DNA of 64,000 nucleotides from Escherichia coli. GTDB taxonomy: Bacteria; Pseudomonadota; Gammaproteobacteria; Enterobacterales; Enterobacteriaceae. This document shows positions 4,159 through 40,792 of the stretch, piece by piece. The translations under genes and the position numbers were made by a program. The first letter of the stretch is position 1. Every line of letters starts with the position of its first letter. The notes below the pieces were generated by a model. The model had not been told where the DNA came from. It was given only the letters and a program-made list of their open reading frames with translations, and searched no databases. Location of the stretch: assembly GCF_002854065.1 (NCBI RefSeq), contig NZ_CP024147.1; one strand, given 5' to 3'.

Positions 4159-6285
<2,127 letters not shown>

Positions 6286-30587: not shown

Positions 30588-31961
30588 GTGGATCATTTGC
30601 CTATATTTTGCCAATTACGCAATCGCGACTGTCTGATTGTCGGCGGTGGTGATGTCGCGGAACGCAAAGCAAGGTTGCTGTTAGACGCAGGCGCTCGCTT
30701 AACGGTGAATGCATTAGCGTTTATTCCACAGTTCACCGCATGGGCAGATGCAGGCATGTTAACCCTCGTCGAAGGGCCATTTGATGAAAGCCTTCTCGAC
30801 ACCTGCTGGCTGGCGATTACAGCGACGGATGATGACGCGCTTAACCAGCGCGTCAGCGAAGCCGCTGAAGCTCGTCGCATCTTCTGTAACGTGGTCGATG
30901 CGCCGAAAGCCGCCAGCTTCATTATGCCGTCGATTATTGACCGCTCACCGCTGATGGTGGCGGTTTCCTCTGGCGGTACTTCTCCGGTTCTGGCGCGCCT
31001 GTTGCGCGAAAAACTCGAATCACTGCTGCCGCTGCATCTGGGCCAGGTAGCGAAATACGCCGGGCAGTTACGCGGTCGGGTAAAACAACAGTTCGCCACG
31101 ATGGGTGAACGCCGCCGCTTCTGGGAAAAACTGTTCGTTAACGACCGTCTGGCGCAGTCGCTGGCGAACAACGATCAGAAAGCCATTACTGAAACCACCG
31201 AACAGTTAATCAACGAACCGCTCGACCATCGTGGTGAAGTGGTGCTGGTTGGTGCAGGTCCGGGCGATGCCGGGCTGCTGACACTGAAAGGTCTGCAACA
31301 AATTCAGCAGGCAGATGTGGTGGTCTACGACCGTCTGGTTTCTGACGATATTATGAATCTGGTACGCCGCGATGCGGATCGTGTTTTCGTCGGCAAACGC
31401 GCGGGATACCACTGCGTACCGCAGGAGGAGATTAACCAGATCCTGCTGCGGGAAGCGCAAAAAGGCAAACGCGTGGTGCGGCTGAAAGGCGGCGATCCGT
31501 TTATTTTTGGCCGTGGTGGCGAAGAGCTGGAAACACTGTGCAACGCGGGTATTCCGTTCTCGGTGGTTCCGGGTATTACCGCAGCTTCTGGTTGCTCTGC
31601 CTATTCGGGTATTCCGCTCACGCATCGCGATTATGCCCAGAGCGTGCGCTTAATTACCGGACACTTAAAAACCGGTGGCGAGCTGGACTGGGAAAACCTG
31701 GCGGCAGAAAAACAGACGCTGGTGTTCTATATGGGGCTGAATCAGGCTGCGACTATTCAGCAAAAGCTGATTGAACACGGTATGCCTGGCGAAATGCCGG
31801 TAGCAATTGTCGAAAACGGAACAGCAGTCACGCAGCGCGTGATTGACGGTACGCTCACACAACTGGGCGAACTGGCGCAGCAAATGAACAGTCCATCGCT
31901 AATTATTATTGGTCGGGTTGTTGGCCTGCGCGATAAACTAAACTGGTTCTCCAACCATTAA
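30588..31961 (+). CDS. cysG: Sirohaem synthase (multifunctional)
   Basis: ORF track 457 aa; N-terminal NAD-binding domain plus C-terminal SAM methyltransferase domain ([10 protein letters not shown]). Confidence 0.95.
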
Positions 31962-31970
31962 TTTAATCAG

Positions 31971-31994
31971 GGCCAGAGAATTCTGGCCTTTTTC
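31971..31994 (+). terminator. Rho-independent terminator after cysG
   Basis: ggccaga-gaat-tctggcc followed by tttttcg. Confidence 0.65.
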
Positions 31995-32132
31995 GTTTAC
32001 AACTCTCTTTATATATTCAGCAGATAAAAATATAACTCATTAACAAAAATCATTTGTTTTTGCCCCGTTATATTCACCGTTACAGCGACTTACAAAATTA
32101 AGTCATTCACTCACTGACGCCGATTAAATATT

Positions 32133-32141
32133 CCTGTATCG
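32133..32141. repeat. Left copy of 9-bp IS1 target-site duplication (CCTGTATCG)
   Basis: Identical 9-mer directly abuts both IS1 termini. Confidence 0.9.
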
Positions 32142-32156
32142 GGTAATGACTCCAAC

Positions 32157-32660
32157 TTATTGATAGTGTTTTATGTTCAGATAATGCCCGATGACTTTGT
32201 CATGCAGCTCCACCGATTTTGAGAACGACAGCGACTTCCGTCCCAGCCGTGCCAGGTGCTGCCTCAGATTCAGGTTATGCCGCTCAATTCGCTGCGTATA
32301 TCGCTTGCTGATTACGTGCAGCTTTCCCTTCAGGCGGGATTCATACAGCGGCCAGCCATCCGTCATCCATATCACCACGTCAAAGGGTGACAGCAGGCTC
32401 ATAAGACGCCCCAGCGTCGCCATAGTGCGTTCACCGAATACGTGCGCAACAACCGTCTTCCGGAGCCTGTCATACGCGTAAAACAGCCAGCGCTGGCGCG
32501 ATTTAGCCCCGACGTATCCCCACTGTTCGTCCATTTCCGCGCAGACGATGACGTCACTGCCCGGCTGTATGCGCGAGGTTACCGACTGCGGCCTGAGTTT
32601 TTTAAATGGCGGAAAATCGTGTTGAGGCCAACGCCCATAATGCGGGCGGTTGCCCGGCAT
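32157..32660 (-). CDS. insB: IS1 transposase InsB (expressed as InsAB' fusion by -1 frameshift)
   Basis: ORF track 167 aa [16 protein letters not shown]...KHYQ matches IS1 InsB. Confidence 0.93.
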
Positions 32661-32854
32661 CCAACGCCATTCATGGCCATATCAATGATTTTCTGGTGCG
32701 TACCGGGTTGAGAAGCGGTGTAAGTGAACTGCAGTTGCCATGTTTTACGGCAGTGAGAGCAGAGATAGCGCTGATGTCCGGCAGTGCTTTTGCCGTTACG
32801 CACCACCCCGTCAGTAGCTGAACAGGAGGGACAGCTGATAGAAACAGAAGCCAC
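32579..32854 (-). CDS. insA: IS1 InsA (transposition inhibitor / N-terminal part of transposase)
   Basis: ORF track 91 aa [42 protein letters not shown]...; A6C slippery motif (plus gtttttt 32597-32603) in the insA/insB overlap. Confidence 0.93.
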
Positions 32855-32909
32855 TGGAGCACCTCAAAAACACCATCATACACTAAATCAGTAAGTTGGC
32901 AGCATCACC

Positions 32910-32918
32910 CCTGTATCG
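32910..32918. repeat. Right copy of 9-bp IS1 target-site duplication (CCTGTATCG)
   Basis: Identical to 32133-32141. Confidence 0.9.
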
Positions 32919-32992
32919 TTCTTAATGAGCAGTCTACTTATATTCATATAATCAATGAATATTAATCAATATATAATACATAGGGAATGTAA

Positions 32993-33160
32993 ATGAACAA
33001 ATTTATTAAAGTTGCACTGGTAGGTGCAGTACTGGCTACGTTAACTGCATGTACTGGTCATATTGAAAACCGTGATAAGAACTGCTCTTACGACTACCTG
33101 CTGCACCCAGCAATTTCTATTTCTAAAATCATTGGCGGTTGCGGTCCTACTGCACAGTAA
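32993..33160 (+). CDS. yhfL: Small lipoprotein YhfL (55 aa)
   Basis: Manual translation MNKFIKVALVGAVLATLTACTGHIENRDKNCSYDYLLHPAISISKIIGGCGPTAQ with lipobox LTAC; not in ORF track because shorter than 60 aa. Confidence 0.75.
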   Translation: MNKFIKVALVGAVLATLTACTGHIENRDKNCSYDYLLHPAISISKIIGGCGPTAQ

Positions 33161-33201
33161 GTCTCTGACAGAAATCAGCTAACACCGGTTTAATTGCCCG
33201 A

Positions 33202-33236
33202 CGCCCTCTGGATTTTCCGAGGGCGTATTTGTTTCT
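33202..33236 (+). terminator. Rho-independent terminator after yhfL
   Basis: cgccctc...gagggcg stem followed by tatttgtttct. Confidence 0.55.
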
Positions 33237-33266
33237 GCATTCTTTTCGAAAACATCATTCACAAGA

Positions 33267-34352
33267 TTAAATACTGGCAATACTCTCACGCAAAATCCGC
33301 AGCACCGTCTCTTCACCGCTGCGATTCGGGTTAATGCGAATCGCACAATGTTCGAGTTGCGGATTCGCCTGGCGGAACGTTCCGGAAAGGCGATAAAAGA
33401 GCGGCGGGATTTCATATTTCGACTCTGCACCGACCGGGTAAGGCAACGCGCCACGCTTTTGCGCTTCTTCCAGCACCCTGGCGGCAATCGGCTGATGAAA
33501 CTCGACAATCAACACCTTCGACTGCGCATTGGCAATGACGGCGCTTTTCACTTCCGGCACTGCACCACCGTTGAGCAAAGCCAGCAACCGTTCAGATACC
33601 CCTGCCTGCACCGCGTGCATCACTGGCGCGAACACCAGCCCACGCAACACTTCCAGCGCCTGTGAGCCCTGGATCTGGCTGCCGCCGGAGTAAAGCGTGG
33701 CGCGAATCCGACTAATAACATCGGCATCGCCAACCACTGCACCAACGCCCTCCGGCCCAAACAGCTTGAAGCAGGAGAATGTCGAGACATTCGCGCCGCA
33801 TTCACAGCCGATTCGCGCCACCTTCATCACCGCATAGTTGTCATCGGTTAACGCTGGAACACCTGCCGCGCGCAACGTTGCCAGCACATCTGCCAGCACA
33901 TAGCTGTCCTGCGGCTGCTGGCGCGTATGCTGCACCAGCGCGGCATCAGGTTGTTGCTCGTCGACGACCTGCTTCAGTGCCGACAGGGCATTGAAATCAG
34001 CAGTAATAAGCGTCAGCCCCATCTGCTCAATAATAACCCGTGTCGTTGGGTAAACAGGCGCGTCATGCACCAGAAGACGCTGCCCCGGTTTGAGCAAAGC
34101 CGCCAGCCCGGCGCGAATCGCGCCAGTCCCCGCGCCCTGCACCAGCGCCGCCGCTGGTGCATGAAACGCATCTGCCAGCACCTGCTCCACCCGCTGGGTA
34201 ATGCGCGGTTGATTCAACCCTGGAGTTAACCCTAAATCACCGCCAGTAAGAAACTCGCTGCCGGGGAAATGGCGGCAGATGGTGTCCACCAGCGCAAACT
34301 GCTTTTGCTGCGCTTCATTAAGCGTCAGGCTTTGCAGAGGAAACGTCTTCAT
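33267..34352 (-). CDS. yhfS: Putative PLP-dependent enzyme YhfS
   Basis: ORF track 361 aa; last gene of the yhfZ-yhfS cluster. Confidence 0.85.
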   Translation of the reverse strand: MKTFPLQSLTLNEAQQKQFALVDTICRHFPGSEFLTGGDLGLTPGLNQPRITQRVEQVLADAFHAPAAALVQGAGTGAIRAGLAALLKPGQRLLVHDAPVYPTTRVIIEQMGLTLITADFNALSALKQVVDEQQPDAALVQHTRQQPQDSYVLADVLATLRAAGVPALTDDNYAVMKVARIGCECGANVSTFSCFKLFGPEGVGAVVGDADVISRIRATLYSGGSQIQGSQALEVLRGLVFAPVMHAVQAGVSERLLALLNGGAVPEVKSAVIANAQSKVLIVEFHQPIAARVLEEAQKRGALPYPVGAESKYEIPPLFYRLSGTFRQANPQLEHCAIRINPNRSGEETVLRILRESIASI

Positions 34353-34363
34353 AGGTGCATTCC

Positions 34364-35668
34364 TTAAGCCGGAATAAACAGGCCAAACCAGTAAAGAACA
34401 TTCAGCAGGATGCCGGTGATCATTACTGCCACGACCGGTGCCGCCATTTTCTGTACCGGACGGCCCAGGGATTCGTTGAGGAAGTAAATGGCAACCGCGA
34501 TAGAGAATCCGGTATAACCCGCCATCTTAATTGCTGCGAAAATCGAACCGACCAGCAGCGCCACTTCCATCAGCATATTCATGGCGTTACGGATGTTATC
34601 CGACGCATTACGCACCGACGGGTAGCGTCCCAGCCATTTGCCGATAGAACGAAGCAGCAAGACTTCCGCCGAAATAACCACTGCGCCTAATACCGCTGCA
34701 ACCATCGGATTCGGCGAGAGATAGCCCACCGCATAAACAAAGGTAAAGCCCGCAACTGCATACACACCCGTTGCTAAGGCGGTGGTGGCAATCAACGGTA
34801 CAAAACCCAGCCCGCGCATAAATTCTGCCAGTGCCGCCTGGTTGATCAGCGTTTGCGATTGTTCCGGCGTTACGCCTGCGGAATATGCTTTCTCAAGGGT
34901 GAAGATCGACACTTCACTGCCAGCAAAAATCTTCATGCTGGCAACGGCGGCAATCAGCGCCCCTACAATAGCGATATACGGTAAGTTTTTGATAATCCGC
35001 GACGTGCGTTCTTCAAACACCGAAAGCCCGCTGGCATCGATGTCATTTTCATCACGATGACGCAGGTCGTGAGTTATCGCGATCCCCAGCAGCATCACCA
35101 TGCCAATAAAGATTTCGATGGATTCAGGGTTAAGATGTGGGAAATAGCGCACGACTACCACACGGGTCATCAGAACAACCACGGCGGCGACCAGACTTTG
35201 CTTCCAGCCAAACTGGTAGAAAATCGCCACCAGCGGGAACAGTGCAAAAGCAGAAACCACCGGCGAGCTTAATTCCCCGAGGCTACCTAATACATCCACC
35301 GGCAGCGCGGTCAGCAGCTGGTTTACTGGCAACAGGCAAGTAAGGATCAACACGCCCCAGATAGCGCCAAGACCAAACGCCATCAGGCTGTTTATCGCCA
35401 GTACGCCGAGGATATCGGTAGGAAGAAAGAGTAACCATGCGTTTAGCAGCCCGGTTTTCAGGGTAAAAGAGATCCCCACCGAGGCCACAAAACCAATGCT
35501 CAGACCAAAAGCGATACTCCCCGCCTCGCGACGGTTCATATAGCCTTCAATCAGTTGCGGCAGGATCGGGCGGATGCCGTCATGAAAAACAGCCGCCGAG
35601 CGATGCGCCAGAAGCGATGTCATACCCGTCAGGCACGCCACCACGATAATCTGAATATACAGATCCAT
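34364..35668 (-). CDS. yhfT: Inner-membrane transporter-like protein YhfT
   Basis: ORF track 434 aa, highly hydrophobic multi-TM protein. Confidence 0.85.
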   Translation of the reverse strand: MDLYIQIIVVACLTGMTSLLAHRSAAVFHDGIRPILPQLIEGYMNRREAGSIAFGLSIGFVASVGISFTLKTGLLNAWLLFLPTDILGVLAINSLMAFGLGAIWGVLILTCLLPVNQLLTALPVDVLGSLGELSSPVVSAFALFPLVAIFYQFGWKQSLVAAVVVLMTRVVVVRYFPHLNPESIEIFIGMVMLLGIAITHDLRHRDENDIDASGLSVFEERTSRIIKNLPYIAIVGALIAAVASMKIFAGSEVSIFTLEKAYSAGVTPEQSQTLINQAALAEFMRGLGFVPLIATTALATGVYAVAGFTFVYAVGYLSPNPMVAAVLGAVVISAEVLLLRSIGKWLGRYPSVRNASDNIRNAMNMLMEVALLVGSIFAAIKMAGYTGFSIAVAIYFLNESLGRPVQKMAAPVVAVMITGILLNVLYWFGLFIPA

Positions 35669-35679
35669 AGTCGTGCCTT

Positions 35680-36033
35680 TTATTTCAGATGGTTAATCAG
35701 CATCGGAATCGCGTGTTCGACGTGCTCAACGGAAAGGCCAAACGCCACTTTTCCTTCAGCGATCATTTTGGCGATATGCTCGTCTTTCGCTTTAATGCCT
35801 GGTTTGGCAATGGTGCAACTTTTGTTATAGCCAATCACCGCGATGGCAATCGACAATGCCGCGCCCGCACCGGTATTACACGCGCCGATGTAATAATCCA
35901 GTTGCCCGGATTTCACCTTCATTGCCGCTTCCATGTCGTTGTGAATGAAAACTTCAAAACAGCCAGGAGCCGTCGCTTCAATAGTTTTTTTAATCTGCTC
36001 ACGCTGTAAGCCTGCAACGCCAATCTTTTTCAT
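35680..36033 (-). CDS. yhfU: Uncharacterized protein YhfU (117 aa from MKKIGVAG)
   Basis: ORF track 130 aa; start chosen at internal Met to avoid overlap with php; alternative start 36072. Confidence 0.8.
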   Translation of the reverse strand: MKKIGVAGLQREQIKKTIEATAPGCFEVFIHNDMEAAMKVKSGQLDYYIGACNTGAGAALSIAIAVIGYNKSCTIAKPGIKAKDEHIAKMIAEGKVAFGLSVEHVEHAIPMLINHLK

Positions 36034-36043
36034 GAGTCTGTCC

Positions 36044-36922
36044 TTATTGGAAAAATTGAGAGGGATTTTCACGTAACATCACATCCACATCGGCCTGACT
36101 GAATCCTGACTGGCGCAATTGCGGAATAAAGGTGGTTAGTAAATAGTCATAGCCATAACCACCGTTGGCTTTTAAATGGGAGCGGCGCGTAATATCCATC
36201 GACAGCATGACGCGGTTCAGCAACCCACGGTCGCGTAGCGCATGAAGCATCGCAATACGCTTTTCGTCCGGGTAGTAACTGTTCTTACCAATGGTGTCGA
36301 ACTGCACATACGCGCCGAGATCGATCATCTTCAAAATGTTGTCGAGGTTGTCTTTCAGATCGCAGTGACCAACGGTGACGCGCGAAAGATCAACTCCGTG
36401 GGCTTGCAACAAAGCCAGTTGCTCCAGCCCCATCGTGCTGAACGACGTATGCGTGGAGATCGGGCGTCCGGTCTGGTTATGTGCCAGCGCGGCGGCAATA
36501 AATACCTTCTCTTCCAGCGGCGTAATCTTCCCTTCGCTGGAGCCGATCTCCGCGATGATCCCGGCTTTCAGTTCCGTGCCATCGATACCCTGCTCAATTT
36601 CATCGACCATCTCCTGCGCCAGTTCCTGCACGCTGCGGGTCGCCACATGTTCCGGGAAAAACGCGTCCTGGTAATAACCGGTACAGGCCACCACGTTGAT
36701 CCCCGTCTCGCGCATTACATCGAGCATAAATTGCGCATTGCGCCCCATGTAACGGTTGGTCATCTCAATCACATTACGCACGCCCCGGGCCATCAGGTCG
36801 TTCATCTCCTGGCAAATGAACGAATACTGATCAAGGCGGCAGTCCACGTTGTTTTTAAAGCCGGAGAGATCAATATGCAGATGCTCATGGGCGAGGGTGT
36901 AACCCGTCGGATCAAAACTCAT
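36044..36922 (-). CDS. php: Phosphotriesterase homology protein (amidohydrolase superfamily)
   Basis: ORF track 292 aa [32 protein letters not shown]... with metal-binding HxH motif. Confidence 0.9.
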
Positions 36923-38145
36923 AGGGTGTCTCCTGCAAACCGGAGGGAGGAAAGAAAAGAGCGACCATTTTGTGGCGGTGGCGCACGGAAAAATTCACAC
37001 ACGGTAGCCCCCACATCAGAAAGCGTGGTGCGCACACCGATCTGCGTAGTGACCAGCCCTTGCTGATAAACCAGCACTGGCACCACTTCACGGGTATGGT
37101 GGCTGTGACCAATGGTCGGATCGTTACCGTGATCCGCCATCACGACCAGGCAATCATCTGGCTGCATCGCCTCGACAAGCCGGGCAAGATTACGGTCAAC
37201 GACCTGCAAACGTTCGGCATAACTTGCGACGTCTTCTGCGTGACCAGCGAGGTCGGTTTCCTGAATGTTGGTGCAAATAAACGCTGTCTGATGGGTGATA
37301 AATTCGTCGAGGGTGATATCCATAATCCGCTGGCTATCCACCAGATTTTGCCAGCTCACGCCATAAGGATTGTTGACGATATCTGCCACCTTACCCACCA
37401 GCACGGTTGGCACGCCTGCTTCATACAGTTTTTGTGGCACCTGCACTTTTTCATCGACGCCATAGCCCATATGCACGACCTGGAAACCGTTGTCATAAGC
37501 GCCAGAACGCGGCGCATTAATACCAATAAAGCGCCCTTCTTTGCTTTCTGCGGCATCGAGAATACGCTGACTGTCGGTTAACAGGCCGCCAAATGTAATG
37601 ACCCGACCGACCTGTACCTGGTCACGCACGATACGACCAATTTTGATTGCGTCGTCAAAAGAGATCACAGAGAGATTGGCGGTAATGTTATAGACTTGGC
37701 CTAAATCCGCCTCGAGATTATCGCCAATCGCAACCGCCTGATTGACTCACAGAAATTGCAGTTCATCGCCACGGCGCTCCACCTGCCAACCGGCGGATAC
37801 TAATGCCTGCTCAACACGGTCAATCACATCGCGAAAGGGCATCCGCAGCGGCGGTAACGGGCGCGTGCCTAAAATTTCCTGATGCCCCATAAAGGTATCG
37901 CCACCTTCATGTTGCAGCTCTGCCACACCCCAGGTTGCGGAGTCTGACGGCTGCATATCACCTGGCGCATAACCCAATGCGTTGATTAGCCCCAGCTTCT
38001 CCAGCGTTGGTAGCTGCAAATGCGGCAGCTGGCTCAGGATGTGACCACAGGTATTCGCTCCGGCATCTTGCGGGCGCACCAGCGTGACATCTTTCATTGC
38101 ACCTACGCCAAAGCTATCAATCACTAACACCACAAATCGCGCCAT
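36919..38145 (-). pseudogene. yhfW: yhfW (phosphopentomutase-like metalloenzyme) interrupted by an in-frame TGA at 37747-37749
   Basis: ORF track gives a 132-aa N-terminal piece (37747-38145) and a 249-aa C-terminal piece (36919-37668); manual translation shows both are in the same frame with 26 sense codons between them, so a single TGA splits a 408-codon gene. Confidence 0.8.
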
Positions 38146-39308
38146 TACGCCTCCAGAGAGTTTCCAAGACTGTCATAACGACCGACAATTTCCGGTTCGC
38201 CACGCTGAATACCCGATACCAACACCACATCACTGCGGGTAACAAAAATCTGCGTACGAAAACAGAACACTACGGCACTACTCACCGGAAACTCGCCTGC
38301 TAACGGCAGGTAATAGTCGATACTGCTGTCATCCACAGTTTTGAGATTTGTTTCAGTAATCTTTTGATTTTCTGGCGTAAACACCAGCGCATGTTGCGCA
38401 TGACCACGACGGTAATAACCGCCGCCGTAGCAGTAGCTGTCGCCACGGAAATGGTGGGAAATTTCACTTAACCAAAGCATCGCGATACGTTCAGGCTGAT
38501 CGCCCTGCTGGTTTGCCGGAATTGTGCCCGTCAGCGCATGACCGGGTTCGGCATGAGTCACACCGTATTGCGCCAGCAATGGCAACGAAGTGCAGCTGGT
38601 CGCAGAAGGTGCGTTCAGTTGCTCAATCGCAATACCAGATTTCGCCAGTTGATCCCGTGCCTGTATCAGCGTGTGAAGATTCGGTGTCGGCAAAACTTTC
38701 CCGGCAGCCTCATCCCAAAGCAGGCAAGGGAAATGGGTTAGTCCGGCTAAATGCAGCCCCGGCAGTTTCTTAATTTCAGCAACCACCTCGTGCAGCGAAT
38801 GCTGTACAAAACCGCTCTCCTGCCCCGGATAAAGAAAATCATCGTCGCTATAAACTTTGAGCAGCACAGACTGGATTCGCCCGGCTTTCACCGCCGCCGC
38901 AGAAACTTCCCGCGCTTTGTCGAGAGTAAACACGGTGATGACGTCGGTGCCCTGTTCAACGGCGTCAGCAACCTGATGACAAGGGATTTGTACCAGATGC
39001 CCCTGATGCGCCACCGGCAAACCAGCGCGGCGCATGACTCGCGCCTCTTTGTAATCCACCGCCACAATGCCGCTGTAGCCCAACGCCAGCAGTTTTTCCG
39101 CCAGCCATGGGTTACGACCGAATTGTTTGGTCATCAGATACAGTTCAATGCCGTAAAGCCGCGCCGTCTCAATCTGCCGCTTACCGTTTTCCAGTATCTG
39201 ATCCACGTCGATCACCCAGCTGTCCGGGGCGATCTTGCCCTGCTGCCACAGACTTAAAGCGGCGGAAATCAGCGCCGGGTTCTGGCGTTTCAATGCTTCT
39301 ACAAACAT
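38145..39308 (-). CDS. yhfX: Alanine-racemase-fold (fold type III PLP) protein YhfX
   Basis: ORF track 387 aa [42 protein letters not shown]... Confidence 0.85.
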
Positions 39309-39391
39309 CTTGTTGCCTCGTTTCTGTTCCTTGAATTAAATATTCATTTTTTTGAATATTTAGATTGTGCGACGTGGATTTGCCGAATGCC

Positions 39392-39754
39392 TCAGATACT
39401 TTCGTTAGCAGCCATCCATAATCCATAAAGGTTGGCCAGCAAATAGCCTTCTTCACACGGGTTAACTTCCAGTGCGAATTCCTTCAACAACACCTGATGC
39501 AATTGCACAACGGCTTGCCAGTGGCTGGATTGCGCCAGCTCTGCCAGCAACTCGTTATCCAGTGGCTCAATTTCTTCACCACGGCGACTGCGCATCAGTG
39601 CACTCGCCATATGTGTCATCGCCATCGTTCCTTGCTCACTGCGCACCGGCAGATGGCACTCTGTTTCCAGTACCTTGACGACCTGCATCATGCCTTTGCA
39701 GATGTCCTTATCAATAACGCCTGCATCGCAAAGCAGGTTGAGTCTGGTTTCCAT
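39392..39754 (-). CDS. yhfY: Uncharacterized protein YhfY (120 aa from METRLNLL)
   Basis: ORF track 134 aa; internal Met chosen as start; alternative start 39796. Confidence 0.8.
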   Translation of the reverse strand: METRLNLLCDAGVIDKDICKGMMQVVKVLETECHLPVRSEQGTMAMTHMASALMRSRRGEEIEPLDNELLAELAQSSHWQAVVQLHQVLLKEFALEVNPCEEGYLLANLYGLWMAANESI

Positions 39755-39770
39755 ATCAGATGCCTTTCGT

Positions 39771-40676
39771 TTAATAACTCGGTTCCTGTTCCCCACTCAC
39801 CACCCGTTGTTGATGGGCGAGCAGGGCGTGTTTATCTACAACGGCACGCAGCAGTTGTTGCATTGGGTAATCATCGACTCGCGTCAGGACCACGGCTTCG
39901 GTGGCCTGTAAAAATCGCGGATCGTCTGTGAGCGGCGTCGCCTCTAATCCCAGCATGGTCAGTTCGTTTTCCGCCACCACGTTCCAGATAACCGCATCAA
40001 CATCGCCTTTAACAATGCGTTGTAAACTCTCGTGATAAGAGAGATCGACTCGTTCCACATCACTACCGCCAAAAAAGACATCAGTCATGATTTTCTGATC
40101 CGCCGAACGGTTATCCAGCCCCACGCGCTTCACGTTTGCGGACTCGCCTTTACGGCAAATCAACTGGTGCTCGCCAACGTAGGTGTGCGGCCCCAACTCC
40201 AGCGCGAGGCATAACCCTTTTTGCGTGAGATAACTTTCCGCCGCCAGTCGGGAAACCACCGCCATGTCATACACGCCGTTAAGTAAACACTCCACGCGAA
40301 TATCCGCGCCGCGCATATGCGCATAGTAAAAAGGAATGCCATCAAACTGGGCTTTCAATCCGCTCGCTAAACCTTCGTACAAGCGGGTATAGGGCAAAGG
40401 CATCGCACATACCACGTTGTTGATATCCACATGACTCAGCAATGCTTTGTTATCCATCTCGACCAGATAACTGCCATTGCGCCCACGGCGTTCAATCCGT
40501 ATCGCTCCGCTTGATTCCAGCGTTTTCAACGCGGCCTGCGTCAGGCCAACGGATGAACGGCATTCAGTGGCCAGTTCATCTATAGTTTTCAATCGGTTAC
40601 CGCACTTTTCACCCAACAAATAACGGGCCAGCGTCGTGATGACGACGCCTTCTTTTTTGATAAACGTTCGACGCAT
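39771..40676 (-). CDS. yhfZ: Putative regulator YhfZ (N-terminal HTH-like region)
   Basis: ORF track 301 aa; first gene of the cluster by position. Confidence 0.85.
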   Translation of the reverse strand: MRRTFIKKEGVVITTLARYLLGEKCGNRLKTIDELATECRSSVGLTQAALKTLESSGAIRIERRGRNGSYLVEMDNKALLSHVDINNVVCAMPLPYTRLYEGLASGLKAQFDGIPFYYAHMRGADIRVECLLNGVYDMAVVSRLAAESYLTQKGLCLALELGPHTYVGEHQLICRKGESANVKRVGLDNRSADQKIMTDVFFGGSDVERVDLSYHESLQRIVKGDVDAVIWNVVAENELTMLGLEATPLTDDPRFLQATEAVVLTRVDDYPMQQLLRAVVDKHALLAHQQRVVSGEQEPSY

Positions 40677-40792
40677 AATAAATTTTCAGTAAATTGAATA
40701 TTTATATCTTCAGGAATTTGAAGATAAGGCGCAACTGTGAGATGTGGAAACGGCGAGGCGCTTCACATTTTTTCGGATTATTGCAAATGAGG

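Follow-up and report, generated by a model that had tools for sequence, protein, structure and literature searches.

The gap between yhfL and yhfS in an Escherichia coli chromosome is very probably an ancestral spacer unoccupied by the frlABCDR operon

In Escherichia coli K-12 the operon frlABCDR lies between yhfL and yhfS, while in the 64-kb stretch of E. coli DNA analyzed here (the window, meaning this stretch at its full length) these two genes abut each other without it, which raises the question whether the site is an ancestral empty one or the product of a deletion. The frl locus, which encodes the fructoselysine/psicoselysine pathway, is well characterized (Wiame et al., 2002, as cited in an excerpt of PMC3505186). 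According to excerpts of metabolic-model and pangenome studies, phylogroup B2 lacks the operon, which most other strains possess (PMC5996543), and in an excerpt of a later preprint this lack is termed a hallmark of B2 (bioRxiv 10.1101/2025.09.14.675865). As such, the absence of frl is already known, and it is a common, ordinary polymorphism of the accessory genome. The window resembles the known presence/absence polymorphism in its position, which is the same locus as in K-12, and in its frl-negative state, which is typical of B2 and of many extraintestinal pathogenic strains; it is unlike B2 in that its yhfS differs by 9% from the B2 allele and in that the closest relatives of its core are O157:H7 and O55:H7. 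The excerpts of PMC5996543 and bioRxiv 10.1101/2025.09.14.675865 contain neither the exact junction (29 bp against 5,242 bp) nor an argument on the ancestral state. What is added here is the description of the junction at the level of single bases, the argument for an ancestral allele, and the occurrence of the empty allele in a non-B2 lineage, none of which is surprising.

The left-hand core gene of the variable stretch is cysG (siroheme synthase; 30588-31961, plus strand), which was taken from the list of open reading frames and is 99.6% identical to K-12 CysG in a tblastn comparison. It is followed by yhfL (32993-33160, plus strand), encoding a DUF4223 lipoprotein of 55 amino acids, the translation of which begins with a lipoprotein-like N-terminus and matches K-12 YhfL at 100% identity; the gene is annotated as yhfL in matching genomes. 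From the other side, yhfS (33267-34352, minus strand) converges on it as the last gene of the yhfZ-to-yhfS cluster, encoding a PLP-dependent aminotransferase-fold protein of 361 amino acids according to its translation and the annotation of matching genomes, with 97% identity to K-12 YhfS. The intergenic region between the two convergent genes (33161-33266), which represents the unoccupied frl site, had been estimated in the initial annotation at about 106 bp and measures exactly 106 bp from stop to stop. It contains one strong hairpin and no remnants of frl. Searching with the K-12 proteins FrlA, FrlB, FrlC, FrlD, and FrlR by tblastn returned no match anywhere in the 64-kb window, which together with the coordinates of the open reading frames confirms the claim that frlABCDR is absent and that yhfL abuts yhfS. 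The gene order of K-12 given in the initial annotation is correct, since the annotated record of K-12 MG1655 reads cysG, yhfL, frlA, frlB, frlC, frlD, frlR, yhfS, yhfT. On both sides the flanks of the empty site are syntenic and orthologous to those of K-12, with cysG-yhfL on one side and yhfS-yhfT-yhfU on the other. A scan of positions 31900-33500 against Rfam at E ≤ 1 matched no RNA family.

The pairwise alignment against K-12, which had been proposed as the way to define the breakpoints and to decide between an empty site and a deletion, sets the breakpoints at 33236 and 33266 and favors the empty site. Homology to K-12 runs at 98% from upstream of yhfL to position 33236 and resumes at 33266 (96%), one nucleotide before the yhfS stop codon, so that 29 bp in the window (33237-33265; GCATTCTTTTCGAAAACATCATTCACAAG) stand against 5,242 bp in K-12. 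The K-12 segment consists of 218 bp upstream of frlA comprising the promoter region, the genes frlABCDR, and approximately 150 bp of REP-type and related palindromic repeats, the latter identified by eye only. Local alignment of the 29 bp with the K-12 insert, both inside it and at its two ends, gave nothing above chance, which together with the blank tblastn searches bears out the earlier statement that the gap holds no gene remnants; no cassette sequence is left at the junction. Furthermore, the comparison with K-12 revealed no direct repeat common to the two cassette junctions, and because frlABCDR are the only genes annotated between yhfL and yhfS in the K-12 record, the insert carries no integrase gene. 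The G+C content of the frl segment is 51-59% and resembles that of its surroundings in the K-12 region; being ordinary for E. coli, the composition gives no independent sign of a foreign origin. The cassette is similar to a classical genomic island in that it is a set of several metabolic genes whose presence varies at one fixed position in the chromosome. It differs in that such islands are linked to a tRNA gene, bear an integrase, and are bounded by direct repeats, whereas the frl cassette has none of the three and a typical G+C content. In sum, it behaves as an ordinary accessory operon that is exchanged through its flanks.

The left breakpoint coincides with the end of the hairpin that had been described in the gap as terminator-like, a description that fits well. 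The stem-loop at 33201-33226 on the plus strand (ACGCCCTCTGGATTTTCCGAGGGCGT) is followed by a T-rich tail (ATTTGTTTCT, 33227-33236), the last base of which (33236) marks the left breakpoint of the cassette. It starts 40 nt past the yhfL stop codon, comprises a stem of 8 + 3 pairs, and has a folding energy of -18.3 kcal/mol (z = -3.5 relative to shuffled sequences), and the whole element (33201-33236) has the makeup of a Rho-independent terminator with a G+C-rich stem-loop and a T-rich tract located 3' of a gene. With its bulge and loop, the hairpin falls outside the rules of a consensus terminator scan, which accordingly missed it. Since the U-tail is absent on the minus strand, the element reads as a terminator of yhfL and at best as a weak terminator for yhfS. 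In an alignment of 11 Escherichia sequences 97% of the cells pair, one stem position varies between G-C, A-U, and U-A, and the covariation score was equaled or exceeded by 7 of 500 shuffles. The hairpin is retained in frl-positive and empty alleles as well as across species, and both of its variants occur with both frl states. These modest but consistent signs suggest that the structure is maintained, and its folding and conservation point to a putative function as the yhfL terminator.

How the two alleles are distributed was determined in a set of 5,426 complete E. coli genomes, in which the contiguous junction was searched with a query lacking the IS1 element that neighbors yhfL in the window. 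The contiguous yhfL-yhfS junction was found in 2,105 genomes (39%, a share that is not a population frequency because complete RefSeq genomes are a biased sample), and at least 80% of the K-12 frl cassette in 3,297; together the two classes cover 5,402 of the 5,426 genomes. The K-12 left junction is present in 3,283 genomes and the right junction in 2,861, and the smaller number of right junctions fits the O157:H7/O55:H7 type, which lacks yhfS. In the empty genomes the matches of the K-12 junction queries end exactly at positions 5692 and 10935 of the K-12 locus in every sampled match. Both breakpoints are identical in K-12, REL606, E69, and all sampled matches from the 5,426 genomes, the identity thus referring to the sampled matches rather than to every genome of the set. 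The left breakpoint is common to K-12, REL606, O55:H7, and E69, with O55:H7 sharing only this one as its right end was removed by a deletion of yhfS-Z. The cassette of E69 (reverse complement of locus L003, 4001-9244) aligns end to end with that of K-12 at 93.6% identity. As the occupied alleles among the sampled matches share one pair of junctions in cassettes that have diverged by up to 6.4%, a single old insertion of the frl cassette would be the simplest reading. As a separate observation, the 3' end of cysG and the yhf genes of E69 are also 5-22% divergent, and the whole E69 segment may come from a divergent Escherichia lineage.

The question which of the two alleles is the older one was addressed with a scan for YhfS in one genome per species, which yielded 80 loci onto which the K-12 proteins were mapped; among these 80 loci no record of E. 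fergusonii, E. marmotae, or E. ruysiae was identified. Only one of the 80 loci, that of E. coli E69, contains frl. In E. albertii, E. whittamii, Escherichia sp. MOD1-EC7003, and strain SCPM-O-B-8794, yhfS lies beside yhfL without frl, and the same holds for several Citrobacter, one Enterobacter, Buttiauxella, Superficieibacter, and others, the distance from yhfL to yhfS in these loci being approximately 60-150 bp. In loci without yhfL, yhfS adjoins cysG. The 29-bp spacer of the window aligns base for base with few substitutions in four Escherichia lineages other than E. coli, so that the junction, spacer and hairpin included, is orthologous to that of outgroups free of the cassette. Since frl-positive alleles lack these 29 bp, a deletion of frl could not regenerate the spacer, which consequently is either the ancestral uninterrupted form or a copy of it gained by recombination. 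No scar of a deletion is apparent either: neither of the two genes nor the yhfL terminator is truncated, the junction retains the ancestral spacer, and the IS1 is 1 kb away. We are therefore left with little doubt about the reading of the gap itself, which from the alignments is in all probability the intact ancestral Escherichia yhfL-yhfS spacer and the unoccupied allele of a common presence/absence polymorphism. The frl-positive form is derived, with 5,242 bp inserted and 29 bp lost. In other E. coli the 5,242-bp segment would have replaced exactly the 29 bp, presumably in a single old insertion by illegitimate recombination, and both alleles would since have been inherited vertically and exchanged among lineages by homologous recombination in the conserved flanks.

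Within E. coli, the comparison of yhfS sequences places the sampled frl-positive genomes, with the exception of E69, in one yhfS allele clade. The empty genomes span several yhfS clades that are 8-9% apart, nearly the distance to other Escherichia species. This pattern is as expected for a derived insertion linked to one haplotype. The frl-positive K-12 and the empty strain 1916D18 differ, cassette and spacer aside, by one SNP over approximately 2.6 kb around the junction (window-equivalent 32032-34622; loci L089 and L087, respectively) and by 1-4% further out, a local near-identity that indicates a swap of the cassette on one haplotype. Moreover, the allele classes do not differ over the first 88 bp of yhfS or over most of the yhfL side, which leaves room for crossovers. 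Judged by these alignments, exchange of alleles by homologous recombination in the flanks clearly occurs. The history may also have a selective side. In excerpts of a study of mouse-gut evolution, frlR, frlA, and frlC are mutated repeatedly under diet-driven selection, and the yhfL/frlA intergenic region is a recurrent adaptive target as well (bioRxiv 10.64898/2026.05.27.728231). Given these recurrent mutations in the mouse gut, balancing selection that depends on diet or niche, and not simple lineage history, could underlie the polymorphism. That the polymorphism is long-lived, possibly maintained by selection in a divergent region, with the cassette moved by recombination of very short tracts and balancing selection as a possible force, is a tentative proposal which we consider possible but would not expect to hold.

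The ancestral nature of the spacer does not by itself tell whether this lineage has carried it throughout, since the spacer could also be a recombinational copy. The window is 99.97% identical to strain 100416 over 48 kb and 100% identical to strain CUWW06 over the parts compared; after these near-identical relatives, its nearest relatives outside this locus are O157:H7 and O55:H7 (99.5%), both of which are frl-positive. The window contains no phylogroup typing markers, so its placement is a nearest-neighbor indication towards these two. Because the nearest core relatives are frl-positive, the empty allele has possibly been regained by recombination rather than kept throughout. In such a history an frl-positive ancestor would have lost the cassette when recombination with DNA from an empty site restored the ancestral 29-bp spacer, an event for which K-12 and 1916D18 offer a parallel and for which the identical 88-bp start of yhfS and the yhfL side would provide the crossover sites. 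However, yhfS of the window forms a clade of its own, 5% from the K-12 type, of which no frl-positive member was sampled, and the divergent haplotype spans the whole yhf cluster, so that a long-term linkage with the empty state fits at least as well. We regard the reacquisition as rather unlikely, though deserving serious weight; the distinct yhf haplotype leans towards retention of the empty allele as the probable course.

Where the cassette came from was approached through the similarity of FrlB, for which the nearest matches outside E. coli are those of a Serratia sp. (84%) and of Sodalis sp. C49 (83%), followed mostly by Firmicutes at 55-75%. In neighboring genera with yhfL-yhfS synteny, the FrlB similarity search found no close orthologue, a pattern more in line with acquisition of the cassette than with its vertical descent. 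Sodalis sp. C49 contains a complete frlABCDR directly beside trpS-gph-rpe-dam (L090, 6603-11559), with fic-yhfG-ppiA-tsgA upstream of frl, which is the same neighborhood as in E. coli. Between this operon and that of E. coli the Frl proteins share 60-83% identity, and the flanking TrpS, Rpe, Dam, and PpiA fall in the same range. The location of this operon beside trpS with ppiA-tsgA upstream, and an identity matching that of the flanking housekeeping proteins, could be taken to mean that frlABCDR is ancestral to the Enterobacterales in the tsgA-trpS neighborhood and was lost many times, which would make the empty sites repeated precise losses. Yet nirBDC-cysG, yhfL, and the yhf cluster are all missing from the Sodalis locus, where the operon consequently occupies a different insertion point from that in E. 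coli; the second close homologue, that of the Serratia sp., sits in an unrelated genomic context; and wherever yhfL and yhfS are both kept in the sampled genera and species, the two genes are adjacent and free of frl. An ancient presence is very improbable, as it needs many independent losses with equivalent end points.

On the far side of yhfL from the junction, where the initial annotation had placed an IS1, an element of 768 bp was indeed found (32142-32909), with its transposase reading frames on the minus strand and imperfect terminal inverted repeats of approximately 23 bp (GGTAATGACTCCAACTTA and GGTGATGCTGCCAACTTA). It is flanked by a 9-bp target-site duplication (CCTGTATCG), the left copy of which lies at 32133-32141 and the right copy at 32910-32918, as given by the 9-bp overlap in the alignments to the IS1-free strain 100416. 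The element separates cysG from yhfL, with 83 bp between its end and the yhfL start codon, and it matches the IS1B annotated in strain FDAARGOS_1284 at 99.9% identity. Strains 100416 and XJ34 lack it and have the same empty junction. IS1 elements are known to cause adjacent deletions, and the initial annotation had implied a link between the element and the missing operon, which finds no support, since the duplication is intact and IS1-free strains 99.97-100% identical to the window share the empty junction. A fresh deletion of frlABCDR in this strain, be it by illegitimate recombination or through the IS1 approximately 1 kb away, is thus so improbable as to be negligible, given that the junction contains 29 bp absent from frl-positive alleles and orthologous to the spacers of other Escherichia, that the IS1 keeps both copies of its duplication with an intact yhfL between it and the junction, grounds on which an IS1-mediated deletion was rejected, and that 100416, XJ34, and 2,100 other genomes share the junction without this IS1. 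The element is a simple insertion of recent date and has no bearing on the absence of frl; the intact duplication and the near-identical IS1-free strains with the same junction indicate that it did not remove the operon.

Further copies of IS1 were found nearby in other genomes. FDAARGOS_1284 has an independent IS1 immediately before the yhfL ATG, an ST131 isolate has one in the 3' end of yhfS, and E. coli B strains carry one inside yhfS. Counting that of the window, four independent insertions in unrelated strains lie within approximately 1.5 kb of yhfL/yhfS (window, 32142-32909; L093, 1583-2350; L094, 1996-2763; L085, 8624-9391), which suggests a locally favored target region for IS1 around these genes.

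A second structural change affects the same part of the chromosome, from cysG to trpS. The O55:H7 genome that was examined, RM12579, retains frl, with frlD annotated as a pseudogene, but has lost 7.7 kb comprising yhfS-Z. One end of this deletion cuts 35 bp off the right end of the frl segment, the other lies 1 nt before the stop codon of trpS, and 14 bp of filler stand between them (junction region L084, 17421-17552). The matches from O157:H7 genomes show the same truncated cassette as O55:H7. Since the yhfS-Z block is conserved across genera, its absence in O55:H7 is a derived loss. This deletion is comparable to the frl polymorphism in that it concerns the same cysG-trpS stretch and in that a breakpoint likewise lies 1 nt from a stop codon; it differs in that it removes a block otherwise conserved across genera, while the frl-negative junction of the window is the ancestral sequence. 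The frl polymorphism, the yhfS-Z deletion, and the IS1 insertions make the cysG-trpS stretch a variable one, and the label of an indel hotspot given to it earlier is a reasonable one in view of the presence or absence of frl, the 7.7-kb loss of yhfS-Z, and the insertion of IS1 on at least four independent occasions in the genomes examined.

The yhf cluster itself (33267-40700, yhfS to yhfZ) is unusually divergent within E. coli. Alleles of yhfS differ by up to approximately 9% at the nucleotide level, nearly as much as from other Escherichia species, and 400-bp windows of the cluster diverge by 3-10% as compared to 1-3% in nirB; relaxed constraint, introgression, or balancing selection are candidate causes. 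Moreover, yhfW (phosphopentomutase-like; 36919-38145, minus strand) carries an in-frame stop at codon 133 and is a pseudogene in the window; it is annotated likewise in strain 100416, and the gene of XJ34 is intact.

For the organism, the empty allele has a metabolic consequence that can be predicted from the sequence: the strain of the window would not use fructoselysine or psicoselysine and is predicted not to grow on these Amadori compounds. For the species, the junction of 29 bp versus 5,242 bp provides a clean typing marker for this locus, and the ancestral empty allele sets the direction for evolutionary models. If the empty allele is ancestral, as we infer, the absence of frl of the type known from B2 would represent retention of the older state and not a loss.
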